IMG/VR virus record: IMGVR_UViG_3300031867_000049 | Location: 274 to 64,273 of that record | DNA length: 64,000 bases | Strand: one strand, 5' to 3' | Source: a virus | Lineage: Duplodnaviria > Caudoviricetes | Shown here: positions 3-41,820 of the stretch, one piece after another | Position numbering within the stretch: the first letter of the stretch is position 1 | Layout of the letters: every line of letters starts with the position of its first letter | The notes under the pieces: model-generated | Seen by the model: only the letters and a program-made list of their open reading frames with translations | Database searches by the model: none | What the model was told of the DNA's origin: nothing | Translations under genes and position numbers: made by a program

Positions 3-296
3 ACCACTCAAGAAGGCAGAGAGGCTCAATTGGTGGCTCTGGCATACGATAGAGTTGAGCAGCGTCTTTTGGATGGAACCGCATCCGGTCAAGAGATCAC
101 CGCTCTAATTAAACTCGGTTCGGAGAAAGCTAAGCTCGAGCGAGAGAAGCTTCGCAATGAAACCGAGGTACTTAAATCAAAGAAAGAAGTTCTCGATGCA
201 AGTAAGAGGACAGATGAAATGTATGAAAAGGCTCTGGCGGCAATGAGAGCCTACAGTGGTATTGAGGAGATGGAAGATGATCCGTACTTACTCTGA
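3..296 (+). CDS. Probable terminase small subunit, 5'-truncated by window edge
   Basis: Frame is open from base 3 (TTQEGREAQLVALA...); helical protein upstream of HNH and TerL. Confidence 0.55.
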   Translation, partial: TTQEGREAQLVALAYDRVEQRLLDGTASGQEITALIKLGSEKAKLEREKLRNETEVLKSKKEVLDASKRTDEMYEKALAAMRAYSGIEEMEDDPYLL

Positions 297-702
297 ATTA
301 ATCACGATACCGACATTCATTGAAAGGTATCGATATTTAAAACTAGGTGATAGAGTCGGAGAAGAAACATTCGGCTTTGACAGATACATCAATCAAGCAT
401 TCTACCATTCAAAGGAATGGAAGCAGCTTAGATCACAAATCATAGCAAGAGATTTAGGATGCGATTTGGCGTTCCCGACAAGAGAGATTCCAAAAGGTGT
501 AAAAGTATTTATTCACCATATGAATCCAATCGACGTGAACGATCTTTTATGCTCTTCGGATTATCTTGCAAATCCGGAGTACCTTATTACAACAATTAAA
601 GTAACGCACGATGCAATTCATTACGGAGACGAGTCCCTTCTTTTCGAAGAAGAGCCTGTGATTCGTACTCCAAATGACACTTGTCCTTGGAGGTTGCAAT
701 GA
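277..702 (+). CDS. HNH endonuclease (packaging-associated)
   Basis: RDLGCDL...IHHMNP...THDAIH motifs; RBS GAGGAG before ATG277. Confidence 0.85.
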   Translation: MIRTYSELITIPTFIERYRYLKLGDRVGEETFGFDRYINQAFYHSKEWKQLRSQIIARDLGCDLAFPTREIPKGVKVFIHHMNPIDVNDLLCSSDYLANPEYLITTIKVTHDAIHYGDESLLFEEEPVIRTPNDTCPWRLQ

Positions 703-1061
703 GTGATTTAAACACAGAAGATAGCATCTTGCTATCAATCAAGAAACTGATAGGCGGACTTGATGAAGAAGATACGAGTTTCGATATGGATCTCATAGTT
801 TTCATTAATTCTACCTTTACAGTTTTAGCCCAGGTTGGAGTAGGCCCTGCCGAACCATTTAGGATTTCAGATAAAACCGCTAAATGGTCCGACTTCGACT
901 ATGATGATCTTGAGGCGGTTAAAGAGTATATGTTTCTAAAAGTTAAGATGACATTTGATCCACCACTAAATGGTTCTGTTATGGATGCCTATAGGCAAAG
1001 AGCAAATGAACTTGAGTGGAGACTGAATGTTTTCTCGGAGGAACTACATGATGAAGAATAA
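699..1061 (+). CDS. Putative head-tail adaptor
   Basis: SILLSIKKLIG...KMTFDPP...EWRL; size and position in head module. Confidence 0.5.
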   Translation: MSDLNTEDSILLSIKKLIGGLDEEDTSFDMDLIVFINSTFTVLAQVGVGPAEPFRISDKTAKWSDFDYDDLEAVKEYMFLKVKMTFDPPLNGSVMDAYRQRANELEWRLNVFSEELHDEE

Positions 1062-2214
1062 ACCTGTTACAGAACTCGATAATGAACTTTATCATTATGG
1101 AGTTCTCGGAATGCATTGGGGAATAAGGCGTTTTCAGCCATATTCTCTTATACCTAGAAAGAGTGGTAAAGGCGGCAAGGAAACAGGGCAGGCAAAGAAA
1201 GCATCCAAATCAAGAGTTACTACGTCAGTTACTAAAACGGTAAGTAAACTCAAGAATGGAAAGGTAACAACTAAATCAACAAAGAAAGTTTCAGAGCTTA
1301 AAGAAGTATCGGAGCCAAAGAAGAGCAGAAATCAGAAATCTGCAGAAGCAAAAGCAGCTGTAGAAGCTCAGGCGAAAACAGCAAGGCAGAGAAAAGAAGA
1401 ACTTGATAATCTTGTTCGAACAGGAACGGCTACTGAGATTTATAATCATAGAAGCGAACTTACTAAATCGCAGCTTAATGATGCAGTAAATCGTCTTAAT
1501 ACAGAGAAAACGCTTCGAGCATTAGTTGCCGAAGAAAACCCTACAAAGATGCAAAAGCTTATCAAAGAACTTGATAATGTTAATGATCTTACTAAGAAAG
1601 GCCTTAACTATTACGATACAGTAAGTAAGGTGAAGAAGAATGTTGACGACATTAAGAAGGACATTAGTGACAAAGAGAAAGCTGACTTTTTAAAGAATGC
1701 AACGTTAGATGAAATAATGGAGCGACGTAAAGATTTCTCGAATAGCGATCTTACGGAGGCTAAGAACAAAGAAGCGACAGTTAAATCGTACTATGATGAT
1801 AAGTTCTTAAAGAATGCTTCATATGATGAAGTAATGAAACGTAGTAATGACTTCTCAGTGAAGCAATTAAGTGAATCAAAAGCTCATCAGAAATTTTATG
1901 ATGAGTATAAGGCTGATGTCGAGCAGAAGAAAGCGGCAGAAGCAGAAAAAAGAAGAATGAGAAATGAAGCTTTAGGAAAGAAGGCTAAAGAGAAATTTAA
2001 TAAAGATAATCCTTTTGATTATGTTTCTCCAGAATTTAAGAAAGAGCGTACCGATGCTGAGCGTCGTAATTATTTGAAGAAATCAATTAATGAAATCGAA
2101 AGTGGTAATTACGATCATGCAGAAGCAAAACGTCAAGGAGAGCAGAGGAAACTCTTTGATGAATACTTTGAATCTGAAGTAGCAAAAACTCAGCAAAAGA
2201 AAAAGAAGAAGTAA
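1048..2214 (+). CDS. Lys-rich putative internal head protein with LYH|YGVLGMHWG leader
   Basis: RBS GGAGGA at 1037; HYG..GM.WG motif; internal FLKNA..DE.M.R..DFS repeat; ends in KKKKK. Confidence 0.7.
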   Translation: MMKNKPVTELDNELYHYGVLGMHWGIRRFQPYSLIPRKSGKGGKETGQAKKASKSRVTTSVTKTVSKLKNGKVTTKSTKKVSELKEVSEPKKSRNQKSAEAKAAVEAQAKTARQRKEELDNLVRTGTATEIYNHRSELTKSQLNDAVNRLNTEKTLRALVAEENPTKMQKLIKELDNVNDLTKKGLNYYDTVSKVKKNVDDIKKDISDKEKADFLKNATLDEIMERRKDFSNSDLTEAKNKEATVKSYYDDKFLKNASYDEVMKRSNDFSVKQLSESKAHQKFYDEYKADVEQKKAAEAEKRRMRNEALGKKAKEKFNKDNPFDYVSPEFKKERTDAERRNYLKKSINEIESGNYDHAEAKRQGEQRKLFDEYFESEVAKTQQKKKKK

Positions 2215-2243
2215 TGATGTGTACTGTAGCATTTATGACTATT

Positions 2244-2274
2244 TTAGCTAGGTTACCAACTAGCTAATTTTTTT
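2244..2274 (+). terminator. Intrinsic terminator-like hairpin before terL
   Basis: TTAGCTAG-gttaccaa-CTAGCTAA followed by T-tract. Confidence 0.75.
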
Positions 2275-2288
2275 ATTTTGGAGGTATT

Positions 2289-4037
2289 ATGTCTTTATCA
2301 AACACAGCAACTCCATACTATTATGGCCTATTTAGAGATGCTGTAATACGAGGAGACATACCTGTAAACCGTGAGATTTCAATGGAGATGAATCGAATAG
2401 ATGCACTGATTGAAAATCCTGCAGTTTACTATGATGAAGATGCCATTAAAGGATGGGTTAAGTATTGTGAAAGCGAATTGACACTAACTGATGGCACAGA
2501 TCTTCATCTATTAGATACTTTTAAGTTATGGGGCGAGCAAATCTTCGGATGGTACTATTTTGTCGAGAAAGAAGTACCAGTTCCAGATGAAGAGGGAAGC
2601 GGTGTCCATTATGAGAGAAAGATTATTAAGAAGAGACTTGTTAATAAGCAGTTTCTGATAGTAGCAAGAGGTGCTGCAAAATCAATGTACGCGTCTTGTT
2701 TACAAAGTTTCTTTCTTAATGTCGACACATCAACGACTCATCAGATTACTACTGCTCCAACAATGAAACTTTCAGAAGAAGTATTGTCACCAATAAGGAC
2801 TTCTATTATCAGATCCCGAGGCCCGTTGTTCAAGTTCTTAACGGAGGGATCTTTACAGAATACTACGGGATCCAAAGCGAATCGAACAAAACTGGCATCT
2901 ACAAAGAAGGGTATTGAGAACTTTCTTACAGGATCGTTATTAGAGATTCGTCCGATGAGTATTAACAAGCTTCAAGGTCTTCGATGTAAAGTCGCTACAG
3001 TTGATGAGTGGCTTTCTGGAGATCTAAGAGAAGATCCAATTGGCGCTATAGAGCAGGGCGCCTCCAAGATAGATGATTATCTAATCGTAGCTACTAGTTC
3101 TGAGGGTACGGTTCGTAATGGGTCGGGAGACACAATCAAAATGGAGCTAATGAAGATTCTTAAAGGAGAATATGAGAATCTTCATGTGTCCATTTGGTAT
3201 TACAGACTCGACGATATTAAAGAGGTTGACGAACCTGAAGCATGGATTAAGGCCAATCCAAATCTCGGAAAGACAGTAAGCTATGAAACATATCAGCTTG
3301 ACGTTGAAAGAGCAGAGAATGCTCCTGCAGCAAGAAACGATATATTAGCAAAACGTTTTGGTATACCTATGGAAGGGTATACCTATTTCTTTACATATGA
3401 AGAAACGCTTCCTCATAAGCGTAAGCGAAATTTTTGGAAAATGTCATGTGCACTTGGAGCTGACCTTTCACAGGGTGATGACTTTTGTGCATTTACATTT
3501 TTATTCCCGTTGTCTAATGGATTATTTGGAGTTAAAACACGAAGCTACATAACAAGGCTTACTCTTGATAACCTCCCTTTGGCTATGAGGCTAAAGTATC
3601 AGGATTTTATGCAAGAAGGGAGCCTTATCGTTCTCGAAGGAAAAGTTCTCGATATGATGGAAGTTTATGAGGACCTTGAGCAGCACATAATTGATAAAGA
3701 TTACGATGTTGCTGCTTTTGGTTATGACCCTTATAATGCCAAAGAGTTTGTTGAGAGATGGGAAACCGAGAATGGTCCATTTGGCATCGAGAAAGTTCCT
3801 CAGGGATCAAAGACCGAATCAGTTCCTCTTGGAGAACTTAAGATTTTAGCTTCTGAAAGAGCACTTTTGTTTGACGAGGAACTTATGTCTTTTGCCATGG
3901 GTAATTGTATAACTCTTGAAGATACTAATGGGAACAGAAAGCTTCTTAAGAAGCGGCATGAGATGAAAATCGACAATGTTGCAGCGCTTATGGATGCTTA
4001 CATTGCTTATAAGGCTAATAAGGATGCGTTTGAATAA
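2289..4037 (+). CDS. terL: Terminase large subunit
   Basis: Walker A-like ARGAAKS, Walker B VATVDE, nuclease GADLS and KIDNVAA motifs. Confidence 0.95.
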   Translation: MSLSNTATPYYYGLFRDAVIRGDIPVNREISMEMNRIDALIENPAVYYDEDAIKGWVKYCESELTLTDGTDLHLLDTFKLWGEQIFGWYYFVEKEVPVPDEEGSGVHYERKIIKKRLVNKQFLIVARGAAKSMYASCLQSFFLNVDTSTTHQITTAPTMKLSEEVLSPIRTSIIRSRGPLFKFLTEGSLQNTTGSKANRTKLASTKKGIENFLTGSLLEIRPMSINKLQGLRCKVATVDEWLSGDLREDPIGAIEQGASKIDDYLIVATSSEGTVRNGSGDTIKMELMKILKGEYENLHVSIWYYRLDDIKEVDEPEAWIKANPNLGKTVSYETYQLDVERAENAPAARNDILAKRFGIPMEGYTYFFTYEETLPHKRKRNFWKMSCALGADLSQGDDFCAFTFLFPLSNGLFGVKTRSYITRLTLDNLPLAMRLKYQDFMQEGSLIVLEGKVLDMMEVYEDLEQHIIDKDYDVAAFGYDPYNAKEFVERWETENGPFGIEKVPQGSKTESVPLGELKILASERALLFDEELMSFAMGNCITLEDTNGNRKLLKKRHEMKIDNVAALMDAYIAYKANKDAFE

Positions 4038-4048
4038 TGGAGGTAATC

Positions 4049-4654
4049 ATGTACAGTAAAAACGATTACAGATATTACCTTGAAAGCCGTCTTGAAGAAT
4101 CGGATGATTACCTTGCTCATTACGGCGTGAAAGGTATGAAGTGGCATAAACATAAGTCCGGAGTAAAGGATTGGTTAAAAAGTCAGTTTAGTTTAAATAC
4201 TCCGATTGCGCAGAATACAAAAGTGGTTGATAATGTTCAAACCAAAAATAAACAAATTCAGTCGACAGGGCAGGATGTAAACAATATTCTTGTGGGCTCA
4301 ATAAGAAGGCAAAATAGGCCATTAAGTAGACTTAAGAGAACTGCTAAGATGTTTACAACTAGGGAGCCAAGCCTTGAAGAACGAAAGCTTAATAATATGC
4401 GTAAAAATGTCAATGCGACTGCCAATAATAAAACGGCGCATGGAAGAATTGATCACATAGCAAAGAAAGCTGCGTATAATACAGAGCTGAAAAATTATGC
4501 TGATTCTCAGAAGCCAAAGAAACGTAAAAAGAAACAAACAATAGAAACTCTTAATACACACAAGCGTTCCAAAAAAGAGGCTAAATGGAATAAAGAGATG
4601 CAAAGCTATGGAAAGGAATACCTTGCTAGCCAAAGTAAAAAGAAAAGGAGGTAA
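4049..4654 (+). CDS. Basic putative internal head protein A (LAH|YGVKGMKW leader)
   Basis: RBS GGAGGT at 4039; very Lys/Arg-rich; lies between terL and portal. Confidence 0.7.
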   Translation: MYSKNDYRYYLESRLEESDDYLAHYGVKGMKWHKHKSGVKDWLKSQFSLNTPIAQNTKVVDNVQTKNKQIQSTGQDVNNILVGSIRRQNRPLSRLKRTAKMFTTREPSLEERKLNNMRKNVNATANNKTAHGRIDHIAKKAAYNTELKNYADSQKPKKRKKKQTIETLNTHKRSKKEAKWNKEMQSYGKEYLASQSKKKRR

Positions 4655-4656
4655 CT

Positions 4657-5055
4657 ATGTATAGTAAAAACGACTATAGATATTACCTCGAGCATCGTCT
4701 TTCTAACTCTGATGATTATTTAGCCCATTATGGTGTCAAAGGCATGAAATGGAACAAACGAAAAGCTACCAGGACTATTGGCGATACAGCGCAATTTGTT
4801 TCCGATAAAGGCTTTCTTAGTTATGTCGATGCTGAGAAGAAGTCTAAAAAAGCATCTGCTAAATTGGCAAAAAAGCTTCGTATGGACAAAGTTGGCGAGT
4901 CTGCAAAAAAATCAGCTGAGAATGCGAAGATGCTCAGAAGAAAAGCTCCGCAGATTAAAGCCGCCTCAAGGCTACTTGTAGCTGAAACTGCTAATGCCGC
5001 TGAAAGTGGTATTAAAGGTGCGATTAAAACTAAAAGAAAGAAGAGGAGGCGTTAA
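4657..5055 (+). CDS. Basic putative internal head protein B (LAH|YGVKGMKW leader)
   Basis: First ~32 aa nearly identical to 4049 ORF; ends in KRKKRRR. Confidence 0.7.
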   Translation: MYSKNDYRYYLEHRLSNSDDYLAHYGVKGMKWNKRKATRTIGDTAQFVSDKGFLSYVDAEKKSKKASAKLAKKLRMDKVGESAKKSAENAKMLRRKAPQIKAASRLLVAETANAAESGIKGAIKTKRKKRRR

Positions 5056-6344
5056 TGGAATATAAATTTTCGGATCGCCTCCAGCATGCCTGGAGTGCTT
5101 TAACTAGAGCTCCGACGCCACCAACCCAGATCACATATGGCGAATCATCGTCATATCGACCGGATAGGCGAAGGCTTACACGAGGTAATGAGAGGTCTAT
5201 TGTGACCTCAATATACAACAGAATAGCAATGGATGTAGCGGCTGTTGACATTAAGCATGTAAGGCTTGATGAAAATGACCGCTTTTTAGATGAAATGGAT
5301 ACAGGTCTTAATGAGGCCTTAACTCTTAGTGCAAATATAGATCAGACAGGAAGAGCCTTTATTCAGGATGTTGTTATGTCAATGTTCGATGAAGGCGTAG
5401 TTGCTATTATGCCGACTGAGACAACAGTAACACCAAACGAAACAGGTTCTTTTGATGTCCTTTCGTTCCGTACTGCAAAGATTGTTTCCTGGTATCCACA
5501 GCATGTAAAACTTCGTTTTTATAATGAAGTAACTGGAAAACCAGCCGAAATAATCATGCACAAAAAGAGTGTTGGTATTATTGAGAATCCATTTTATGCA
5601 GTAATGAATGAGCCAAACTCCACTTATCAGAGACTCGTTAGGAAGCTCAATCTTCTTGATGCTGTTGATGAACAGAGCGGAGCTGGCAAACTTGATATTA
5701 TTATCCAACTTCCTTACACCGTTAAGAATGATACCAGAAGGAATCAGGCTGAAAAGCGTCGTAAGGATATAGAAACGCAACTTGCCGGATCTAAATACGG
5801 AATAGCATACGTTGACGCAACTGAAAAGATTACTCAGCTTAATCGTCCTGTTGAGAACAATCTTATGAAGCAAATCGAGTATCTAACGAGTACACTATAT
5901 GGGCAGTTAGGGATTACCGAGGAGATTCTTAAGGGAACGGCGGACGAGAAGACCATGCTGAATTACTACAATTCAACCATTGAGCCGATCCTTTCAGCTA
6001 TTACTAATGAGCTTAAACGTAAGTTCCTAACCAAGACTGCCAGAACTCGCGGTCAGTCTATTGAATTCTTCAGAGATCCGTTCAGGTTGGTACCAGTTAA
6101 TAGTATTGCTGACATTGCTGATAAGTTTACAAGAAACGAAGTCATGACGTCGAATGAAATCAGACAGGTTATTGGCATTAAGCCTTCTGATGATCCGAAG
6201 GCAGACATGCTTGTTAATAGTAATCTTAATCAGTCGCCAGAGCAGCTCGCAATGCAAATGGGTGTTCAACCAGGAATGTCTATGCAGGATGAAACAGTTG
6301 GAGCAGATTATGATCCGATGCAAACGCCTGTCAGCGAACTATAA
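5055..6344 (+). CDS. Portal protein (HK97-like)
   Basis: 429 aa, directly before protease/capsid; typical portal segments (LSANIDQTG, PIL.AI..EL.RKFL). Confidence 0.9.
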   Translation: MEYKFSDRLQHAWSALTRAPTPPTQITYGESSSYRPDRRRLTRGNERSIVTSIYNRIAMDVAAVDIKHVRLDENDRFLDEMDTGLNEALTLSANIDQTGRAFIQDVVMSMFDEGVVAIMPTETTVTPNETGSFDVLSFRTAKIVSWYPQHVKLRFYNEVTGKPAEIIMHKKSVGIIENPFYAVMNEPNSTYQRLVRKLNLLDAVDEQSGAGKLDIIIQLPYTVKNDTRRNQAEKRRKDIETQLAGSKYGIAYVDATEKITQLNRPVENNLMKQIEYLTSTLYGQLGITEEILKGTADEKTMLNYYNSTIEPILSAITNELKRKFLTKTARTRGQSIEFFRDPFRLVPVNSIADIADKFTRNEVMTSNEIRQVIGIKPSDDPKADMLVNSNLNQSPEQLAMQMGVQPGMSMQDETVGADYDPMQTPVSEL

Positions 6345-6367
6345 CAAACTTTTAAGGAGAATTCAAA

Positions 6368-8218
6368 ATGGCAAAGAAAACTTATGACTTTAGTGGCTGG
6401 GCTACTAAATTCAACATTAAGTGTGCCGATGGAAGAACAATCCGAGAGTCTGCTTTCAAACAGAATGATGGAAAAGTTGTACCGCTTGTATATATGCATG
6501 ACCATTACGATCCAGAAAATGTTCTCGGTCATGCGCTTCTAGAGTATAGACCTCCGGAAGGAGTTTATGCTTATGGAAAATTTAACAATACATCAAGAGG
6601 ACAGCATGCAAAAGAGATGGTACGAAACGATGACGTACTGTCTCTTTCTATTTATGCCAATAACTTGAAAGAAGACAAGACTACTGGGGAAGTTTTCCAC
6701 GGTGCAATCAGAGAACTCAGTCTTGTTCTTGCAGGGGCAAATCCTGAAGCTAGGATAGACATGCCTTATCTTGAACATGCTGATGGCGAATCTTTTGAAG
6801 CTGAAATTTTCTGCGGTGAACAAGAGCTTGAACTCTATCACTCAGAAGAAGCGGCAGAGAGTGAAGAAGGAGAAGATATGGCAAAGGATAACACCGAAGA
6901 AAGAACAGTTCAGGATGTTCTGGACGAGATGAGTGAAGAGCAGCAGAAAGTGGTCGCTTACCTGCTCGATGAAAAGGAAAAGGAAGTTCTCGAGTCTCTC
7001 GAAGATGAAGAAGAGTACGAAGACGATGAGGACTATGAAGACGAAGAAGACGATGAAGAAGAATATGATGATTCCGAAGAGGAGGAAGAAATGAAGCACA
7101 ACGCATTTGATTCTGCAACAAGAACCGATAACTATCTGAGCCACGATGACATGAAGGCTATCATTGATTCAGCAGTTCGTGGCAAAACATCGCTTAGAGA
7201 TACTGTTGAGGCTCATATTGAGGATGGCATCCTCTCGCACGCTGTTCCTATGGACGGAATGGTAGGCCCTTCGAGTGAAACAGCTAGCCAGACTTATGGT
7301 GTAAGAGATCTTGATATGCTCTTCCCAGAGCCAAAGTCACTTAACAATCCGCCTGAGTGGATCAAGAGAGAAACCGGCTGGGTTGACGTAGTTATGAATG
7401 GTGTTCACCACACACCTTTCTCGAGAATTAAGTCCCAGTATGCAAACATTACCGAGGATGATGCTCGCGCAAGGGGTTACATTAAGGGTAAGCAGAAGAA
7501 GGAAGAGGTCTTCACGCTGCTCAAGAGAACAACCACACCGCAGACAATCTACAAGAAGCAGAGACTGGATAGAGATGACATTACTGACATCACTGACTTC
7601 GATGTAGTAGCTTGGATCAAGGGCGAGATGAGAATGATGCTCGATGAGGAAATCGCAAGAGCTATTCTTATCGGTGACGGCAGAGAGTCAGATTCCGATG
7701 ACAAGATTCACGAGCTGAACGTAAGACCTATTGCTACAGATGTTGATCTCTTCAACATTAAGGCTTCTGTTAATGTTAAGGCTGACGCTACTGATGATGT
7801 TGTTGCTAAGACATTCATCGACACAGTAATAAGATCCAGAAAGAAGTATAAGGGATCCGGTAACCCTGTTATGTTTACAACAGCTGACATGCTGACTGAG
7901 ATGCTTCTGCTTGAGGACGGAATTGGTCACAAGCTGTATAAGTCCGTTGCTGAGCTGACAACTGCTCTGAGAGTATCAAGAATCGTTGAGGTTGAAGTAA
8001 TGGAAGGACAGACTATCAATGACAAGCCGCTTGCAGCTATTATCGTTAACCTTCAGGACTACAATGTTGGTGCTGATAAGGGTGGCGCTGTATCGCTGTT
8101 CGATGACTTCGACATCGATTACAACCAGTACAAGTACCTCATCGAGACACGTTGCTCTGGCGCTCTGATCAAGCCGTTCTCAGCTATCACAGTTACTGTT
8201 AACAGAGTAAGTGCGTAA
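6368..8218 (+). CDS. Prohead protease + acidic scaffold + major capsid protein fusion
   Basis: N-terminal HK97-type protease (YMHDH, ELSLV), Glu/Asp-rich linker at ~aa160-241, capsid-sized C-terminal domain ending ETRCSGAL. Confidence 0.9.
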   Translation: MAKKTYDFSGWATKFNIKCADGRTIRESAFKQNDGKVVPLVYMHDHYDPENVLGHALLEYRPPEGVYAYGKFNNTSRGQHAKEMVRNDDVLSLSIYANNLKEDKTTGEVFHGAIRELSLVLAGANPEARIDMPYLEHADGESFEAEIFCGEQELELYHSEEAAESEEGEDMAKDNTEERTVQDVLDEMSEEQQKVVAYLLDEKEKEVLESLEDEEEYEDDEDYEDEEDDEEEYDDSEEEEEMKHNAFDSATRTDNYLSHDDMKAIIDSAVRGKTSLRDTVEAHIEDGILSHAVPMDGMVGPSSETASQTYGVRDLDMLFPEPKSLNNPPEWIKRETGWVDVVMNGVHHTPFSRIKSQYANITEDDARARGYIKGKQKKEEVFTLLKRTTTPQTIYKKQRLDRDDITDITDFDVVAWIKGEMRMMLDEEIARAILIGDGRESDSDDKIHELNVRPIATDVDLFNIKASVNVKADATDDVVAKTFIDTVIRSRKKYKGSGNPVMFTTADMLTEMLLLEDGIGHKLYKSVAELTTALRVSRIVEVEVMEGQTINDKPLAAIIVNLQDYNVGADKGGAVSLFDDFDIDYNQYKYLIETRCSGALIKPFSAITVTVNRVSA

Positions 8219-35402: not shown

Positions 35403-35605
35403 CGAAGGAGCATGCTGTGGCTCCGGACGAGAAGATGCTAGAGGAACTATATGAGCTTCTTGGGTTATATTTTGGGATAGAGATCGGAAACGGCATAGTA
35501 AAGCCGGGAGAACGAGTAGACATAGAACCTCAGCTTGACAGGGTTATATTTCGTGAAGAGATTCTCGCACGGATTACAGCGCTGATAGTAGGAGGTGAGA
35601 AATAA
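35375..35605 (+). CDS. Hypothetical protein
   Basis: Tiles after xis; possible GTG start at 35417 after AAGGAG. Confidence 0.45.
   Translation: MAEKQTSYVTKEHAVAPDEKMLEELYELLGLYFGIEIGNGIVKPGERVDIEPQLDRVIFREEILARITALIVGGEK
35564..35591 (+). promoter_or_regulatory. Phage promoter motif copy 1
   Basis: CTCGCA-cggatt-ACA-gcgctga-TAGT|AG. Confidence 0.75.
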
Positions 35606-35823
35606 TGAATAAGACTCTTTATGTATTAATCGTGATTGATGACTGCGTGTATCAACCTAGTATTGTGGGGATATTCGAAACTGAGCAGGACGCTAAAAAC
35701 GTAATTGAGCGAATTGAACAGAACGAACACTCTGAATTAGGTCATGCATGCTTGGAAATCGAGAAGCACGAACTTAATGCTATTGATGAGGAATTACTTG
35801 GTTATAATAATCTCTTTATCTAA
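35605..35823 (+). CDS. Early cassette protein, hypothetical
   Basis: RBS AGGAGGT starting at motif +1. Confidence 0.75.
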   Translation: MNKTLYVLIVIDDCVYQPSIVGIFETEQDAKNVIERIEQNEHSELGHACLEIEKHELNAIDEELLGYNNLFI

Positions 35824-35844
35824 AAATCGTGAGGTCTACATGGC

Positions 35845-35872
35845 CTCGCATTTTTTGCAACCTCTAGTATAG
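35845..35872 (+). promoter_or_regulatory. Phage promoter motif copy 2 (fused with terminator hairpin 35829-35856)
   Basis: CTCGCA-tttttt-GCA-acctcta-GTAT|AG. Confidence 0.8.
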
Positions 35873-35885
35873 GAGGTGAGAAATA

Positions 35886-36176
35886 ATGAATAAATACACA
35901 AAAAAGCAGCAAGAGCAAATAAACATGTGGTCAAAAGTGGAAGAAGAACTTACTAATAAACTTATAGAAGTAAATGAGGAATTACGCATATTATACGGTC
36001 ATAGTATGAATATTTATAATAGCGATGAAATTCTCGAATTTACTGATTTAAGAAAAAAGATAGTAAATAGACTTCATTTTGCAAGTAAACGACGTGAAGA
36101 AGCAATGCAAGCAAAAACTTTGTATGAAAAAAAGAAAATGGAACTCGCCGAGATAAAAGAAAAATGGGGCTTTTAA
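35886..36176 (+). CDS. Early cassette protein, coiled-coil hypothetical
   Basis: RBS + ORF between motif copies. Confidence 0.75.
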   Translation: MNKYTKKQQEQINMWSKVEEELTNKLIEVNEELRILYGHSMNIYNSDEILEFTDLRKKIVNRLHFASKRREEAMQAKTLYEKKKMELAEIKEKWGF

Positions 36177-36190
36177 TAGCCTCTTTTTTT
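36166..36190 (+). terminator. Cassette terminator
   Basis: GGGGC-ttttaata-GCCTC + T7. Confidence 0.7.
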
Positions 36191-36216
36191 CGCATAATGA
36201 ACAACCTCTAGTATAG
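36189..36216 (+). promoter_or_regulatory. Phage promoter motif copy 3
   Basis: TTCGCA-taatga-ACA-acctcta-GTAT|AG. Confidence 0.8.
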
Positions 36217-36229
36217 GAGGTGAATAGAT

Positions 36230-36436
36230 ATGATTCTAAATATTTTAAACACTTATGACGAATTAAATGATTGCACTAAAGAAGAACTAATAAAAATGGT
36301 AATTGCATTAGATCAGGTTGCTGATGAAGCAAAAAATACAATCAACAAATTGACCGATTGCAATAACGCATTATTAGGTGAACTTGGATATGATGATTTA
36401 AAAGTAAGTCAAAGGTTAGAATGGAAGGAATGTTAA
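36230..36436 (+). CDS. Early cassette protein, hypothetical
   Basis: RBS + ORF. Confidence 0.75.
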   Translation: MILNILNTYDELNDCTKEELIKMVIALDQVADEAKNTINKLTDCNNALLGELGYDDLKVSQRLEWKEC

Positions 36437-36467
36437 AAACCTATGAAAATCGCGAGGCATACAAGTC

Positions 36468-36495
36468 CTCGCATTTTTTACAGCCTCTATAATAG
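36468..36495 (+). promoter_or_regulatory. Phage promoter motif copy 4 (fused with hairpin 36452-36479)
   Basis: CTCGCA-tttttt-ACA-gcctcta-TAAT|AG. Confidence 0.8.
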
Positions 36496-36511
36496 CAGGA
36501 GGTATAAAACT

Positions 36512-36697
36512 ATGAATAAAGCAGTTATATTTAGATTTATTGCAGGCTTAATGCTTGTAGCACAGGGAATAGAGTTAGGAAGAACCCTAACGACTAGGAA
36601 ATATTGCTACGATGCAGAAAAGTACGGACATGGAATCATAACGTACACTGATATTCACGGTGTAGATCACCATGCAGTAGTAGAGGCTTATAAATAG
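36512..36697 (+). CDS. Early cassette protein with N-terminal hydrophobic segment
   Basis: Start refined to ATG36512 after AGGAGGT. Confidence 0.7.
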   Translation: MNKAVIFRFIAGLMLVAQGIELGRTLTTRKYCYDAEKYGHGIITYTDIHGVDHHAVVEAYK

Positions 36698-36709
36698 CCT
36701 CTATTTTTT
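36682..36709 (+). terminator. Cassette terminator
   Basis: AGAGGCT-tataaat-AGCCTCT + AT6. Confidence 0.75.
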
Positions 36710-36735
36710 CGCATTTTTTACATCTTTCTTAATAG
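36708..36735 (+). promoter_or_regulatory. Phage promoter motif copy 5
   Basis: TTCGCA-tttttt-ACA-tctttct-TAAT|AG. Confidence 0.8.
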
Positions 36736-36753
36736 AAAGGAAGGTGACTTATC

Positions 36754-37008
36754 ATGAAGGAATATAAAGTAAGTCTTGATATTAAATGTAGTTCTAAAAA
36801 TGAGGCATCGGACATAAAACGAATGATTACTGAATTGGGAGTCGAGTTTGGATATAGGAATTTGGAGATTGCTATATGCAAACCGTTAATCGATGATACG
36901 TATATGATTTCGGTTCAAACCGACGCTAAAACAAAAAAGAAGATTATTAAATATTTAGGATTAACAAAAGAACGTAAAGGTATATCACTATTCGTAATGG
37001 GGGCTTAG
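36754..37008 (+). CDS. Early cassette protein, hypothetical
   Basis: RBS + ORF. Confidence 0.75.
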   Translation: MKEYKVSLDIKCSSKNEASDIKRMITELGVEFGYRNLEIAICKPLIDDTYMISVQTDAKTKKKIIKYLGLTKERKGISLFVMGA

Positions 37009-37022
37009 GCCCTCTATTTTTT
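36999..37022 (+). terminator. Cassette terminator
   Basis: GGGGGC-ttag-GCCCTC + T-tract. Confidence 0.7.
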
Positions 37023-37048
37023 CGCACGAAACACATGTTCTATTATAG
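37021..37048 (+). promoter_or_regulatory. Phage promoter motif copy 6
   Basis: TTCGCA-cgaaac-ACA-tgttcta-TTAT|AG. Confidence 0.8.
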
Positions 37049-37060
37049 GAGGTGATAGAC

Positions 37061-37171
37061 ATGTTAAAAGGTTATTATGTACCGGCAGGATATATGGGCT
37101 GGGTTGGCAATGGATGGATGCTATTCGCAACCGAACAGGATTATTATGAGTATATGAATAGGAGTTTATAA
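37061..37171 (+). CDS. 36-aa microprotein MLKGYYVPAGYMGWVGNGWMLFATEQDYYEYMNRSL
   Basis: Hand-translated (below track cut-off); RBS AGGAGGT. Confidence 0.75.
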   Translation: MLKGYYVPAGYMGWVGNGWMLFATEQDYYEYMNRSL

Positions 37172-37172
37172 A

Positions 37173-37301
37173 ATGGACGAACATAAATACTTGATAAGAG
37201 ATGATTGGAAATGGATAGCAAGAGCAGCCAAAGTCACCAGAATTATATTCTACCCTATATTACTAATTTGGCATCTATTTGATCCAGAAGTAGAGCTCTA
37301 A
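37173..37301 (+). CDS. 42-aa putative membrane microprotein
   Basis: Hand-translated MDEHKYL...IIFYPILLIWHLFDPEVEL; RBS AGGAG. Confidence 0.55.
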   Translation: MDEHKYLIRDDWKWIARAAKVTRIIFYPILLIWHLFDPEVEL

Positions 37302-37318
37302 CAAGGGCTCTTTTTTTT
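37292..37318 (+). terminator. Cassette terminator
   Basis: AGAGCTCT-aaca-AGGGCTCT + T-tract. Confidence 0.75.
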
Positions 37319-37346
37319 CTCGCACCAAAAACACCTCGGTTAGTAG
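37319..37346 (+). promoter_or_regulatory. Phage promoter motif copy 7
   Basis: CTCGCA-ccaaaa-ACA-cctcggt-TAGT|AG. Confidence 0.8.
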
Positions 37347-37359
37347 GAGGTACACTATT

Positions 37360-37716
37360 ATGAACATTAACGAACTTAAAACAAAAGCTAATGTAAAAAT
37401 CACAGGCTGGAAGTGGAAGGCCAAGGTAAAGACTCAGGAGATTAAGAAATGGTGTAAAGAGAATCCTGAATCTGCACTGATTATTGGCGGAGGAATTCTT
37501 GGAGCAGCGAAATATATTGGAAAAGCTGCAATCAAGAGATCCAACATCAATAAGGAAGAGCAGATCAAGACTCATTACTGCTATGACAGATCTTTAGGTC
37601 ATTACTGGTCATTGAAACGCGAGCTTACGAACAGAGAATGGCTTGAGATTGACAAAAGGAAACGTGATGGAGAAAAAATGGCAGACATCCTGGATAGTAT
37701 GAAAGTACTGAAATAA
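37360..37716 (+). CDS. Early cassette protein with Gly/Ala-rich hydrophobic segment
   Basis: ALIIGGGILGAAKYIG; RBS. Confidence 0.8.
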   Translation: MNINELKTKANVKITGWKWKAKVKTQEIKKWCKENPESALIIGGGILGAAKYIGKAAIKRSNINKEEQIKTHYCYDRSLGHYWSLKRELTNREWLEIDKRKRDGEKMADILDSMKVLK

Positions 37717-37738
37717 GAAATCGCGAGGGCAATATGCT

Positions 37739-37766
37739 CTCGCATTTTTTTCAGCCCCTAATATAG
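37739..37766 (+). promoter_or_regulatory. Phage promoter motif copy 8 (fused with hairpin 37723-37751)
   Basis: CTCGCA-tttttt-TCA-gccccta-ATAT|AG. Confidence 0.75.
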
Positions 37767-37778
37767 GAGGTGAAAGAA

Positions 37779-38162
37779 ATGAATATACGAATTTTAGAAA
37801 GGAAACTGCCAGCAGAAATTAAGTACACTAAACGGAATCCTAATGAAACAAAATTCATGACACTCGACGAACTTAATAATGATTTTATCGTTTTACAATG
37901 GTCGAAAACGAGTCTTATGGTTTCTGAAGATTTAGCTAATGGATTATTTAACACCAGCAAAATTGGTGAAAAAGGTAATAGAATAGTATTTCTTGAAGAG
38001 ATTTTAGAGATTATTTTCGGCATAGATGTGGATCTTGATAAACCATATTATTATGAAGAAGGTGAAAGAATTGAATGGGATTATGAATTAATAGGGCTTA
38101 AAACTGGATCGGTATTTATTGAAAGAGCATATGTAATTAGATTTCATCCAACACATTATTAA
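37779..38162 (+). CDS. Early cassette protein, hypothetical
   Basis: RBS + ORF; start refined. Confidence 0.75.
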   Translation: MNIRILERKLPAEIKYTKRNPNETKFMTLDELNNDFIVLQWSKTSLMVSEDLANGLFNTSKIGEKGNRIVFLEEILEIIFGIDVDLDKPYYYEEGERIEWDYELIGLKTGSVFIERAYVIRFHPTHY

Positions 38163-38166
38163 AAGT

Positions 38167-38196
38167 AGGAGGCGCAATGCCTCTTATTTTTTTTTT
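38167..38196 (+). terminator. Cassette terminator
   Basis: AGGAGGC-gcaat-GCCTCTT + T-tract. Confidence 0.75.
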
Positions 38197-38222
38197 CGCA
38201 CTGGATACATGCTCTCTAATGA
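38195..38222 (+). promoter_or_regulatory. Phage promoter motif copy 9
   Basis: TTCGCA-ctggat-ACA-tgctctc-TAAT|GA. Confidence 0.8.
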
Positions 38223-38256
38223 AAGTTATAGGCAGCTATTAGAAAGGAGAAATGAT

Positions 38257-38736
38257 ATGGCTGAAATGTATAACGAAGCTTATGAAGGCGAGTTATTTAT
38301 TACTGAAGGTTTGGACGATGAAGTAGAAAGATACAACCTACTTGAAGATGGGACCGAAAAGAAATTAAATGCCGCTAAAGCGCTGCAAATAAGGCACACA
38401 CTTGGAATCGAAGAGTTTAAAGCCGGTCAGCAGGCAGAAGACATGGCAGAACGCAGACAACTTGAGCGTGAAAGATTAGAACTGGAGCGTGCAAAGATGG
38501 AAGCAGAAGCTGATGAACGAGCTATGCAGGCTAGAGCAGAAGCAAAACGAGAAAAGTTTAGAAACGGAGTAGCGATTGGCGGATTTATATTCACAGGAGC
38601 CCTTCAGATAATAGGACTTGTATTGGATCATGGACATGCGTTCCAGGATACTATCAGGAATAGAAACGCTGAAAATGAAGCGAAGGATACAAGAAGAGCT
38701 TTAGAAAGATTAACTGACAGAATAGCAAACCGCTAA
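38257..38736 (+). CDS. Coiled-coil protein with C-terminal TM
   Basis: Start refined after AAAGGAG; GVAIGGFIFTGALQIIGLVL. Confidence 0.75.
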   Translation: MAEMYNEAYEGELFITEGLDDEVERYNLLEDGTEKKLNAAKALQIRHTLGIEEFKAGQQAEDMAERRQLERERLELERAKMEAEADERAMQARAEAKREKFRNGVAIGGFIFTGALQIIGLVLDHGHAFQDTIRNRNAENEAKDTRRALERLTDRIANR

Positions 38737-38742
38737 CTTTAA

Positions 38743-38781
38743 ATGGGGAGTTCGTGTTAAATACATGGGCTCTCATTTTTT
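38743..38781 (+). terminator. Cassette terminator
   Basis: ATGGGGAGTTCGTGT-taaat-ACATGGGCTCTCAT + T-tract. Confidence 0.7.
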
Positions 38782-38807
38782 CGCATATTTTACACCTCGG
38801 ATTATAG
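38780..38807 (+). promoter_or_regulatory. Phage promoter motif copy 10
   Basis: TTCGCA-tatttt-ACA-cctcgga-TTAT|AG. Confidence 0.8.
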
Positions 38808-38820
38808 GAGGTACAAAGAT

Positions 38821-39072
38821 ATGATTAGACGTAAAAAATACAACAAAAACGTAAATCTACCAATGGATCGAGAAGAGAAACTTGTAAAGGATGTTTGGGA
38901 TGATGTTGCGGAAATGATGATGTCATTACAGGAACTCGAGGGAGATGAAGAAGTAATAGAACATATTGCTGATGGAATCCACGAGTTAGCTGATTTGATA
39001 GAAGCAATCGCATATCAGGGGCAACTCCCTAAGAAACTTAAAAGACCATGGAGAATAAAGGAAATGAGCTAA
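38821..39072 (+). CDS. Early cassette protein, acidic hypothetical
   Basis: RBS + ORF. Confidence 0.75.
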   Translation: MIRRKKYNKNVNLPMDREEKLVKDVWDDVAEMMMSLQELEGDEEVIEHIADGIHELADLIEAIAYQGQLPKKLKRPWRIKEMS

Positions 39073-39123
39073 TAGTTATATTTGAGTATTATTAACCGCG
39101 GGGCTAACATGGCCTCGTATTTT

Positions 39124-39151
39124 TTCGCATGCTTTACAGGTTCTATAGTAG
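39124..39151 (+). promoter_or_regulatory. Phage promoter motif copy 11
   Basis: TTCGCA-tgcttt-ACA-ggttcta-TAGT|AG, preceded by hairpin 39098-39118 and T-tract. Confidence 0.8.
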
Positions 39152-39195
39152 AAATAACACTGTTATTGTAAAGTATATTCAAAGGAGGAACTAAT

Positions 39196-39510
39196 ATGGA
39201 TACTCGTAAGAATTATGAAGAACTTGGAATGGCAATAGTCGAACAGGCAGCGACGGACTACCACAATGCAAGATTCTTTCTTGAAACTGAAGACTTGAGG
39301 TCATATAAAGATACTGCAAGTAAAAACAGTAGACATAATATGGCGAAAAAGACTTTGGCGGAAATAGAAAGTTTCTTTCATAGTGAATGGTTTCGAACAG
39401 TATGCCCGGATCTTGACGGAAAAAAAGCATTTGAAGCTTTGAAAGAAACTTACGACAGAGAAGTTAGGGACGATAAAATGGAAAAATTTATGCGTAACAG
39501 AAATAATTAA
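39196..39510 (+). CDS. Conserved phage hypothetical protein
   Basis: YEELGMAIVEQAATDY...EIESFFHSEWF; RBS AAGGAGG. Confidence 0.8.
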   Translation: MDTRKNYEELGMAIVEQAATDYHNARFFLETEDLRSYKDTASKNSRHNMAKKTLAEIESFFHSEWFRTVCPDLDGKKAFEALKETYDREVRDDKMEKFMRNRNN

Positions 39511-39516
39511 GAATAT

Positions 39517-39550
39517 GAGTTCTTGTAGAAATACAAGGACTCTATTTTTT
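39517..39550 (+). terminator. GAAA-tetraloop terminator with no promoter after it
   Basis: GAGTTCTTGTA-gaaa-TACAAGGACTC + T-tract. Confidence 0.8.
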
Positions 39551-39555
39551 GCCTT

Positions 39556-39894
39556 ATGAAATACTACTACGAAAAACCAACTGAATACACCGTTACAAAA
39601 GCTAAGACGATCCATACGGATGATAAGTTATATTCTGAATGCACTCTTTATGAGGTTGATGGTAAAGGACTCAAAGTAGTGCAGCTCAGATTCAACCCCA
39701 AGCTAAAAGTTTTCTTTTACGGCCCAATAAATCCTTGGCTTATTGATGATATTTTCTCCAGAGAAGGATTTTTAGAAAACCTCTCAGATCCTCCGTATCC
39801 TACTATGACCGTACGGACGCTTATGTGGAAACTTCGGATGAAACCCCTTAAAAAAGAATGGTGGGAAAACTCGCAAATTTTACATAGTAGATAA
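39556..39894 (+). CDS. Hypothetical protein
   Basis: 112-aa ORF; no clear RBS. Confidence 0.6.
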   Translation: MKYYYEKPTEYTVTKAKTIHTDDKLYSECTLYEVDGKGLKVVQLRFNPKLKVFFYGPINPWLIDDIFSREGFLENLSDPPYPTMTVRTLMWKLRMKPLKKEWWENSQILHSR

Positions 39895-39897
39895 TGA
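39870..39897 (+). promoter_or_regulatory. Phage promoter motif copy 12
   Basis: CTCGCA-aatttt-ACA-tagtaga-TAAT|GA, inside 3' end of upstream ORF. Confidence 0.75.
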
Positions 39898-39926
39898 AAA
39901 GTACAGGAGAATTGAGGAGGTGTATT

Positions 39927-40136
39927 ATGAATAACAACATTAAGAATTATGTGTTACTTTACCTTATGCTTATGAAGGCACATGCAGAACTAGTAGTAGA
40001 TATAGTTAAAAATAGTTACGGCAAGACTAAATTGCTGAACCTATTATTAGCTATACCATTTCTGGTTCACTCAGTATTCTATAACATTTGGTGGATAATA
40101 AAATTCGGAAAAAAGTATAAGCCAATCTTTGATTAA
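39927..40136 (+). CDS. Small membrane protein
   Basis: RBS GAGGAGG; hydrophobic segments. Confidence 0.7.
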   Translation: MNNNIKNYVLLYLMLMKAHAELVVDIVKNSYGKTKLLNLLLAIPFLVHSVFYNIWWIIKFGKKYKPIFD

Positions 40137-40145
40137 ATGTATTGC

Positions 40146-40175
40146 ATAAAGGTCGAACAACGGCCTTTATTTTTT
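40146..40175 (+). terminator. Cassette terminator
   Basis: ATAAAGGTCG-aacaa-CGGCCTTTAT + T-tract. Confidence 0.75.
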
Positions 40176-40201
40176 CGCAAATATTACAGCCCATATAATG
40201 A
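40174..40201 (+). promoter_or_regulatory. Phage promoter motif copy 13
   Basis: TTCGCA-aatatt-ACA-gcccata-TAAT|GA. Confidence 0.8.
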
Positions 40202-40232
40202 AAAATACCGGAGATCATGAAAGGAGAAAATC

Positions 40233-40544
40233 ATGGGTATTGTTAATAAAATAAGGGCGATTAGAAAAGGAACAGAGAAAGTTAAAGATTTTGATAACGC
40301 AAAGACAGAAAAACACAATGTTCATTATTCGAGATATATAGCATCTTGGATTAATGCTGGTGGAGATTTGTCAACGTTAGACGGATGGTACAGCTTTGCA
40401 TTTTGGCTGGATACACTTGGACTGACGGCTGATGAAATCTATCACATTAGAGTGATGGCTACAAACGGAAAACTTGAACTTGAAAATTCTGCAAAAGAAT
40501 TTATCAAAAGAGCAAACGAGATTTCTCTCGGACTTAAGGGCTAA
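40233..40544 (+). CDS. Early cassette protein, hypothetical
   Basis: RBS AAAGGAG + ORF. Confidence 0.8.
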   Translation: MGIVNKIRAIRKGTEKVKDFDNAKTEKHNVHYSRYIASWINAGGDLSTLDGWYSFAFWLDTLGLTADEIYHIRVMATNGKLELENSAKEFIKRANEISLGLKG

Positions 40545-40562
40545 TCAGCCCTTTTATTTTTT
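40536..40562 (+). terminator. Cassette terminator
   Basis: AAGGGCT-aatc-AGCCCTT + T-tract. Confidence 0.75.
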
Positions 40563-40588
40563 CGCATTTTTTACATCTACTATAATGG
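40561..40588 (+). promoter_or_regulatory. Phage promoter motif copy 14
   Basis: TTCGCA-tttttt-ACA-tctacta-TAAT|GG. Confidence 0.8.
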
Positions 40589-40621
40589 AACGTAGTGCTA
40601 AGAAGTGAAAGGAGTACGGAA

Positions 40622-40774
40622 ATGAAAAAAGCACTCATAATTACAACACTGGCTTATGAAGTAGCGTATATAGTAGTAGCTATATATGCACTGAAGAATC
40701 CGGAGAAGTATGGTGAATGGAATGCTAAATTTATTGGCAGTATGACAAGCACACTTGAGAAACTAGGTTTATAA
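40622..40774 (+). CDS. 50-aa membrane microprotein
   Basis: Hand-translated MKKALIITTLAYEVAYIVVAIYALK...; RBS AAAGGAG. Confidence 0.65.
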   Translation: MKKALIITTLAYEVAYIVVAIYALKNPEKYGEWNAKFIGSMTSTLEKLGL

Positions 40775-40789
40775 AGGAGGAAGAATCAA

Positions 40790-40903
40790 ATGATGACAGT
40801 ATGGAATGTAATTAAAGGTATATGCACGATTACTGGAGCATACGTTTGGATCAAAGCAATCAAAGAAACGATTGAAGAATACAACGAAGCTCCAGAGAAG
40901 TAA
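40790..40903 (+). CDS. 37-aa microprotein
   Basis: Hand-translated MMTVWNVIKGICTITGAYVWIKAIKE...; RBS AAGGAGG. Confidence 0.6.
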   Translation: MMTVWNVIKGICTITGAYVWIKAIKETIEEYNEAPEK

Positions 40904-40923
40904 ATATAGCTAAAGCAAGCCAT

Positions 40924-40950
40924 AGGGGAGCCATTTGGTTCCTCTTTTTT
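40924..40950 (+). terminator. Cassette terminator
   Basis: AGGGGAGCC-attt-GGTTCCTCT + T5. Confidence 0.75.
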
Positions 40951-40963
40951 CTCTGAACATATG

Positions 40964-40991
40964 TTCGCAAAATTTACATCTTCTTTAATGA
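40964..40991 (+). promoter_or_regulatory. Phage promoter motif copy 15
   Basis: TTCGCA-aaattt-ACA-tcttctt-TAAT|GA. Confidence 0.8.
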
Positions 40992-41016
40992 GAAATCAGA
41001 AAAGGAGGATGGACTG

Positions 41017-41184
41017 ATGATATCGTTTGAATTAATATTATACGTTATAGTTTATGGATTTGAATTCTTCATACTCGCACTGATGGGTATAGGATTATTC
41101 GGATTTATATGCGGTAAGTTTAATAATGAGACGTTACAGGCGGTTCACGACTACATATTCGTGATTGACGACGAGGAGCTTTAA
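41017..41184 (+). CDS. 55-aa membrane microprotein
   Basis: Hand-translated MISFELILYVIVYGFEFFILALMGIGLFGFICG...; RBS AAGGAGG. Confidence 0.65.
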   Translation: MISFELILYVIVYGFEFFILALMGIGLFGFICGKFNNETLQAVHDYIFVIDDEEL

Positions 41185-41198
41185 GGCTCCTTTTTTTT
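41174..41198 (+). terminator. Terminator with no promoter after it
   Basis: AGGAGC-tttaag-GCTCCT + T7. Confidence 0.75.
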
Positions 41199-41212
41199 CT
41201 AAGGAGGAAGAA

Positions 41213-41443: not shown

Positions 41444-41458
41444 AAAAGGTGAAGAATT

Positions 41459-41782: not shown

Positions 41783-41792
41783 AATCCTTATT

Positions 41793-41820
41793 CTCGCAGT
41801 ATTTACAACCTATGTTATAG
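41793..41820 (+). promoter_or_regulatory. Phage promoter motif copy 16
   Basis: CTCGCA-gtattt-ACA-acctatg-TTAT|AG. Confidence 0.8.

Follow-up and report, generated by a model that had tools for sequence, protein, structure and literature searches.

A putative histidine-specific maturation motif in a fused protease–capsid precursor and a DUF7211 tag that may load cargo into siphophage heads

Results

The stretch of viral DNA considered here, termed the window, covers 64,000 nucleotides (positions 274 to 64,273) of IMG/VR record IMGVR_UViG_3300031867_000049, a complete viral record of 64,273 bp in which nearly all genes share one strand. Our subject is a protease–capsid fusion protein encoded in it, together with a short sequence element, the Pfam domain DUF7211, that may address other proteins to the same capsid. 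Based on protein searches, the phage is a siphophage of the 1706/Oengus/actinophage supercluster, which takes in Lactococcus phage 1706, Faecalibacterium phage Oengus and actinophages of clusters AU, AM, AW, DJ, BI, CC and EL. A preprint describing this supercluster (bioRxiv 10.1101/842583) predicted its polymerase and is silent on tags and cleavage. The head module runs in the order HNH nuclease, connector, 388-residue protein, large terminase, two small proteins, portal and a 616-residue fusion, the last of which (6368–8218) joins a prohead protease, a spacer and the major capsid protein in one chain. A first-pass annotation of the window had proposed that the motif L-x-H is both the cleavage site of the prohead protease and the end of a capsid-targeting leader on other head proteins.

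The protease domain occupies residues 1–137 of the fusion (6368–6778, plus strand) and ends in Y-L-E-H137. It scores marginally with Pfam Peptidase_S78 (22.2 bits against a cut-off of 21) and matches PHROG 3270, 'head maturation protease', at E 4e-208; H44 and S118, the predicted catalytic pair, are invariant in 50 sequences, and with a profile score above the cut-off and conserved His and Ser the domain is assigned to S78. The scaffold-like spacer (residues 138–291; 6779–7240, plus strand) holds H158, H244, H259 and H291. It is followed by the predicted mature major capsid protein (residues 292–616, 36.4 kDa; 7241–8218, plus strand), which has the HK97 fold both by profile (Pfam Phage_capsid, 32.8 bits against a cut-off of 24.2) and by structure, with Foldseek matches at probability 1.00 to a gene transfer agent (GTA), Gordonia phage Cozz, HK97 and encapsulin shells. 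Searches by sequence, with the single sequence or a profile, found no relatives of solved structure. In an AlphaFold model of the polyprotein the protease is folded at residues 4–133 (predicted local distance difference test about 90), residues 134–179, 215–255 and 289–332 are disordered, helices span 181–212 and 259–285 of the spacer, and the HK97 fold follows thereafter. Given this segment layout, four of the sites fall in modelled disordered junctions and one caps a helix. The motifs that the first-pass annotation had listed at H137, H158, H259 and H291 are all present, and M-K-H244, which it overlooked, makes a fifth junction site. L-G-H55 was also considered as a junction site and rejected, as it sits inside a confident β-strand of the protease fold. 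Cuts at the five sites would yield a 15.5-kDa protease, peptides of 21, 86, 15 and 32 residues and the 36.4-kDa capsid protein, the predicted 86-residue fragment having a net charge of −40. The homologous polyprotein of phage 1706 (orf10, L114:6971–9031) ends in a poly-Thr run followed by H-H-D, a C-terminal extension absent from the window protein.

Of 120 homologues with 60–97% identity, all have H137 and H291 and 119 have H158; the acidic stretches around the spacer sites are poorly conserved. A more distant set, comprising 80 further viral contigs together with phages ReqiPepy6, P092 and Correa, provided 83 distinct spacers. In these, L, I, V, M or F stands at position −2 of 450 of 502 spacer His residues (90%), as against 21% in shuffled sequences, and the His is mostly followed by S, A, N or G at +1 and by D or E at +2. 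The pattern was replicated in 37 further spacers collected with a different query (170/194, or 88%, against 21% shuffled). H137 is found in 84/84 sequences, H158 in 83/84 and H259 in 78/84; spacers have anywhere from 3 to 9 sites, and the motif context stays constant. Moreover, the L-F-P of the capsid N-arm, itself invariant, is preceded at a distance of 3–32 residues by a hydrophobic-x-His in all 83 distinct homologues. Within the window itself, 91 of the 331 His residues of the whole proteome (27%) have L, I, V, M or F at −2, compared with five of six in the polyprotein spacer, so that the signal is modest in a single genome and, by sequence comparison, decisive across homologues. The proposal that L-x-H marks the domain junctions is thus borne out: the motif is conserved, non-random and located in modelled disordered junctions. 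Cumulatively, these data make it highly probable that the spacer motif is the maturation site of the fused protease.

The conserved His residues might have a different role, as metal-binding or pH-sensing scaffold residues or as sites for a host protease, in which case the likeness between spacer and tag would be coincidental. To our knowledge, His before the cut is undocumented for this protease clan, which favours such a view. Metal binding, on the other hand, does not require the hydrophobic residue that is kept at −2 in 88–90% of cases, and which matches the P3/P1 logic of T4 gp21, cutting after L/I-x-E, and of herpes assemblin, cutting after V/L/I-x-A. Further, these are the very stretches in which a fused protease has to release the capsid domain, and a shared host protease is unlikely because the hosts span Actinobacteria and Firmicutes. 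We consider a non-proteolytic or host-dependent role very improbable.

Four copies of the sequence L-x-H-Y-G are present in the window, confined to three DUF7211 proteins and the N-terminus of the RNA polymerase. The H-Y-G motif, assigned in the first-pass annotation to a domain of unknown function, corresponds to DUF7211 (PF23847; curated cut-off 27 bits), which is matched by the products of genes 1048, 4049 and 4657 and by all 125 relatives picked by motif. Gene 1048 (1048–2214, plus strand; 33 bits) encodes the 388-residue protein and is preceded by a ribosome-binding site, GGAGGA, at 1036–1041. Its leader of 16 residues ends in E-L-Y-H (His codon 1093–1095), and the Lys-rich, coiled body has a net charge of +27 and a poly-Lys tail. 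Gene 4049 (4049–4654, plus strand; 201 residues, 38 bits; ribosome-binding site GGAGGT at 4039–4044) has a leader of 24 residues ending in Y-L-A-H (His codon 4118–4120) and a body of net charge +32 with a basic tail, and gene 4657 (4657–5055, plus strand; 132 residues, 43.9 bits) likewise has a 24-residue leader ending in Y-L-A-H (His codon 4726–4728) and a body of net charge +24. All three bodies end in poly-basic tails, and basic tagged bodies of this kind resemble the internal proteins of T4. The starts chosen earlier for genes 1048 and 4049 in preference to the longest open reading frames are supported by their ribosome-binding sites, and with starts so backed the N-terminal L-x-H motifs, present in all four proteins as described, place the His at residue 16 (1048), 24 (4049), 24 (4657) and 8 (polymerase). 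We also note that the gene 1048 body holds two similar 25-residue segments (L-K-N-A-x-x-D-E-[IV]-M-x-R ...), that a related segment occurs in 1706 orf7, and that these segments may be a repeat unit of such basic proteins.

A motif scan among relatives yielded 143 copies of the tag, all on the capsid strand, with the His mostly 5–25 residues past the start codon and the consensus (D/N)-(E/Y/F)-L-x-H-(Y/H/F)-G-(V/I)-x-G-M-(K/R)-W-G-(V/I)-R-(R/K). The scan pattern made no demand on position −2, yet Leu stands there in 94% of the 140 distinct copies. Downstream of the His comes the conserved core, Y/H-G-V-x-G-M-K-W-G-V-R-R, whereas the leader before the His is variable and can be as short as 4–5 residues. 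The earlier description of the N-terminal element as a capsid-targeting leader therefore needs correction: with so variable and short a leader, the core after the His must be the address. A leader query for longer proteins, run as a word-indexed protein search, returned close relatives only, and a literature search found no papers on DUF7211 or on the motif strings.

In a phage collection the tag is confined to the supercluster (156 records), and ReqiPepy6 carries eight DUF7211 genes. When one genome per species was scanned with the tag pattern alone, 185,579 species gave 73 tag loci, in 54 of which the same protease–capsid fusion lies downstream on the same strand; those of the remaining loci that were checked were either cut short or had their tag genes beside the same terminase or tape-measure families. 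The bins from which these loci came were assigned to Clostridia, Actinomycetota, Saccharibacteria, Bacteroidota and others. In some relatives (L159:6474–16085 and L137:684–6398) two tagged genes lie directly upstream of the tape-measure gene (PHROG 4372, as in the window) and so adjoin that gene instead of the terminase.

A profile of the tag matches 51,167 clusters (50% identity) in a library of 1.84 billion proteins, and the top matches bear 2–5 tags per chain, spaced about 215 residues apart, so that tags stand both at N-termini and between the modules of polyproteins. In Gordonia phage Secretariat, gp15 (L116:5263–6816) consists of a tag, a GNAT acetyltransferase, a second tag and a papain-fold glutamine deamidase, and gp12 (L116:1387–3087) combines an N-terminal 2H phosphoesterase with an internal tag; the two proteins have the look of injected effectors. 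In other chains the tag is followed by an ADP-ribosyltransferase, by Barstar or by CW_7 repeats, and most tagged bodies are basic and have no Pfam match. These enzyme domains are of the same kind as injected effectors such as T4 Alt. In one 568-residue chain (L042:2315–4018) two DUF7211 tags flank a Barstar (barnase inhibitor) domain. In the window, the cargo charges of +24 to +32 are complementary to the −40 of the predicted spacer fragment.

The multi-tag chains offer what is, as sequence evidence, the strongest new argument for cleavage. Taking as a strict, spacer-type site a hydrophobic-x-H followed by S/A/G/N and then D/E, we counted 114 such sites in the top 150 multi-tag chains, as against 18 ± 5 in shuffles, and 79 of 99 strict sites fall within 60 residues ahead of the next tag. 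A strict site stands upstream of 128 of the 227 internal tags, most commonly at a distance of 10–19 residues, giving a junction with the layout module end, V-K-H, short acidic spacer, F-L-E-H and tag core. The 4657 protein has tandem sites, L-E-H13 and L-A-H24, that are 11 residues apart and mirror these junctions. The first-pass annotation had taken both as cleavage sites; both exist, but Y-L-E-H13 is not conserved in close relatives, where the position holds H, D, N or R. An upstream site with nothing to remove at an N-terminus would fit such decay in paralogues.

An alternative accepts the spacer sites as genuine and takes DUF7211 to be an uncut cargo-loading peptide that binds the procapsid interior, with L-x-H as no more than part of the binding surface and the protease groove (bound as a pseudo-substrate), the scaffold helices or the capsid shell as the dock, in the manner of encapsulin cargo peptides. 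The position of the conserved core after the His, the unlikeness of the residues after the His to those of spacer sites, the HK97 fold shared by the capsid domain and encapsulin shells, and the invariant yet disordered tag, typical of a binding motif, are all in keeping with it. In the multi-module chains, however, a tag precedes each module and a spacer-type His site lies 10–19 residues upstream of it, an arrangement that is hard to explain unless the modules are separated, and, within the N-terminal part of the tag, no position is better kept than Leu at −2 and the His. We therefore judge an uncut tag unlikely, though deserving of real weight, and favour the view, which we hold to be somewhat probable, that DUF7211 is a dock-and-cut tag for head cargo.

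Another possibility is that DUF7211 proteins are substrates of the protease that are not retained in the particle, being degraded, expelled or active only in the cell, for instance as basic scaffolding, as charge-balancing proteins or as packaging helpers replacing the small terminase. Pfam and PHROG profiles recognised no small terminase in the window, gene 1048 occupies its usual position, and the tagged bodies are low-complexity and basic, all of which this possibility would accommodate. Enzyme cargo (GNAT, ADP-ribosyltransferase, deamidase, 2H phosphoesterase), by contrast, would be useless as a scaffold. Moreover, orf7 of Lactococcus phage 1706, the positional counterpart of gene 1048, is annotated as a 'structural protein' and has two tag-like motifs in which R or K follows the His; the tagged gp019 of ReqiPepy6 owes its label of virion structural protein to its likeness to orf7. 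The structural labels of 1706 are reportedly based on gels and mass spectrometry. Substrates lost from the particle thus appear improbable, and the sequence data point to tagged proteins that are probably loaded into the head and trimmed there.

The RNA polymerase gene (60849–63596, plus strand) lies at the right end of the window, at the junction of the replication and late modules, and encodes a 915-residue single-subunit enzyme of the two-barrel (YonO/RdRP) class. It matches RdRP (PF05183) at 24.5 bits against a cut-off of 23.8 as well as PHROG 4291, and D521, D523, G524 and D525 of its D-x-D-G-D loop are invariant; a two-barrel polymerase was noted for the supercluster in the preprint cited above (bioRxiv 10.1101/842583). 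At about residues 4–28 it carries a variant of the tag, E-L-M-H8-Y-G ... R-Y-P-W-G-S-G, which shares L-x-H-Y-G and W-G with DUF7211 and has an insertion of 4–5 residues. Since the Pfam model does not score this N-terminus, it is a variant of the tag and not a DUF7211 member. All 23 polymerase homologues examined, from actinophages, lactococcal and gut phages and including ReqiPepy6, P092 and Correa, have the variant in the form (D/E)-x-(L/I)-x-H-(Y/V/I/E)-G followed by S-G-R-Y-P-W-G-S-G, some 8–46 residues from the frame start, with H8, G10, S15–Y18, G21–G23 and Q28 invariant, so that the L-x-H-Y-G reported for the polymerase proves to be a real and conserved motif. In a structure model residues 1–31 are disordered and detached; an N-terminus that is invariant and yet modelled as disordered is characteristic of a linear motif that a partner recognises.

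In four homologues (G004, G011, G012 and G016; loci L106–L113) the polymerase is 1020–1058 residues long and matches the query in two pieces, separated by an unmatched gap of roughly 180–220 bases that suggests an insert near query residue 650–685. The element TCGCA-N6-ACA is present in 17 copies in the window, as against 1.6 expected, all on the plus strand and 14 of them at 35565–41807, just downstream of the integrase; the others are at 48002, 50160 and 50507. It is followed by a TATAAT-like box and often comes directly after a hairpin and T-run, and its spacing is unlike that of a standard sigma-70 promoter. By sequence these elements are candidate promoters of the phage polymerase, and as circumstantial evidence they would fit a polymerase arriving with the DNA. 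A literature search for packaged polymerases in the supercluster found nothing.

The portal was also named in the first-pass annotation as bearing an L-x-H site. Its residues 8–11 are indeed R-L-Q-H (5076–5087, plus strand), but the site is poorly conserved, with His11 in 51 of 79 homologues and N, K, R or S in the others, and R8, A12, W13, A15 and F16 are better kept; His11 as a conserved site was therefore rejected, and the segment is probably part of a conserved N-terminal helix. Two features of the surrounding DNA may be recorded. The HNH nuclease and connector genes precede the tagged gene 1048 within window positions 256–2214, and the terminase gene (2646–4035, 39% G+C) has 71% nucleotide identity over 1.4 kb to Gordonia phage terminase genes, a striking DNA-level conservation across phages of different host phyla.

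Discussion

From these sequence patterns we infer the scissile bond, docking, packaging and injection in the following scheme. The head precursor would be made as one chain of an HK97-type (S78) protease, an acidic scaffold-like spacer and an HK97-fold capsid protein. After assembly the protease would cut behind the His of (L/I/V/M)-x-His, before a small and then an acidic residue, at H137, H158, H244, H259 and H291, thereby releasing a 36-kDa capsid protein that begins at A292 and converting the spacer into small acidic peptides able to exit the shell. DUF7211 would be a portable module of which the first half resembles a cut site and the conserved second half is a likely docking element inside the procapsid. 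Proteins carrying it would enter the head during its assembly, be trimmed or split apart at the His, and be delivered alongside the DNA. In the present phage this cargo would be the three strongly basic proteins (+24 to +32 net charge), and in relatives acetyltransferases, an ADP-ribosyltransferase, deamidases, 2H phosphoesterases and multi-module polyproteins. The phage's own RNA polymerase, with its variant tag, may be packaged too; this is the least secure step, for which we would put the odds a little short of even. For the scheme as a whole, a His-cutting protease combined with a dock-and-cut tag that loads head cargo, we estimate a probability of roughly 0.58.

Several observations weigh against this interpretation. 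Behind its His the tag has an aromatic residue and Gly, where the spacer sites have a small and then an acidic one, and because of this difference a cut of the tag at its His is less certain than the spacer cut. Most of the tag's conservation lies past the proposed cut, unlike in T4 leaders, so that the tag would stay on the cargo. Covariation between tag and spacer within a phage is weak (z 1.7 by identity, not significant by BLOSUM), and their likeness would thus reflect a shared consensus with no phage-specific tuning. Single-module bodies are neither enriched nor depleted in sites (motif 20% versus 19%, strict sites 4 versus 3.3), and the portal has its His in just 65% of homologues. As to the polymerase, its N-terminus gave no DUF7211 hit in Pfam at E ≤ 0.01, that of ReqiPepy6 scores 14 bits against the 27 required, and the 1706 polymerase is without structural annotation. 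A complex prediction with the whole polyprotein and the first 50 residues of the 4657 protein scored 0.00, which counts neither way.

By analogy, the His-specific cleavage motif and the DUF7211 tag appear to be a variation on T4-like capsid targeting, and the parallel with T4 gp21 drawn at the outset is apt: there is a hydrophobic P3 and a fixed P1, and the same motif is reused in the scaffold and capsid precursor. As in T4, where the prohead protease gp21 (S77) removes capsid-targeting sequences from the internal proteins IPI-III and Alt, a short N-terminal element is found on small basic proteins and on an ADP-ribosyltransferase, the His lying 8–24 residues from the start in this phage and 5–25 in most of the 143 copies. 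Unlike in T4, His and not Glu precedes the proposed cut, the protease is of the S78 type and forms one chain with the capsid protein, the tag has its conserved part behind the proposed cut, the tag is also found between polyprotein modules, and the phages are Gram-positive siphophages. With His in place of the Glu of (L/I)-x-Glu and an S78 profile in place of S77, the present system would work like that of T4 without being a member of it.

Herpes assemblin and HK97 gp4 share the protease fold and likewise act as a Ser/His protease inside the procapsid. In assemblin the cut falls between (V/L/I)-x-A and Ser, so that P3 is hydrophobic and the residue behind the cut is small, as at the spacer sites; the proposed His before the cut would set the phage protease apart from both. 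HK97 brings in its protease by means of a targeting tail at the C-terminus, with no fusion to the capsid protein. Encapsulin cargo peptides resemble the tag as short, conserved, flexible terminal peptides that direct diverse enzymes into an HK97-fold shell, but they are usually C-terminal and uncleaved, no protease is involved, and their Gly/Ser-Leu-type consensus is unrelated to that of the tag. Capsid-borne effectors or polymerases entering with the DNA are known from MuF polymorphic toxins of temperate phages and from the virion polymerases of N4 and crAss-like phages, the crAss-like enzyme being of the same two-barrel class as the polymerase described here; the address known from those systems is a whole head-protein domain (MuF), and the phages with known polymerases are podoviruses. 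In giant phages (phiKZ gp175, SPN3US gp245), according to two reports (PMC7411985, PMC10052503), many head and ejection proteins including polymerase subunits are processed by the prohead protease, which cuts after S/A/G-x-E. Processing by a prohead protease at a short consensus, with the polymerase among the substrates, would thus be common to both; the consensus differs, the giant phages are very large-capsid myoviruses, and their substrates are not known to share a conserved tag like DUF7211.

If the interpretation is correct, a domain of unknown function matching 51,167 clusters would gain a role, and the capsid-protease clan a new cleavage specificity. Any tagged protein would become a candidate injected effector, with the tag as the key to a catalogue, so that anti-defence and host-takeover factors could be sought directly in the phages that infect Lactococcus, gut Clostridia, Actinomyces, Arthrobacter, Gordonia and Streptomyces. 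The tag might also be usable as a handle for loading foreign proteins into capsids. These siphophages would also prove to carry in an RNA polymerase of their own, a trait known until now from N4-like and crAss-like podoviruses. More tentatively still, a His-cutting protease of the assemblin clan and the DUF7211 tag may together specify all the proteins that a very large group of Gram-positive siphophages injects, and it is conceivable, with the same reserve, that this set would comprise basic DNA-coating proteins, toxin-like and anti-defence enzymes and the phage RNA polymerase.

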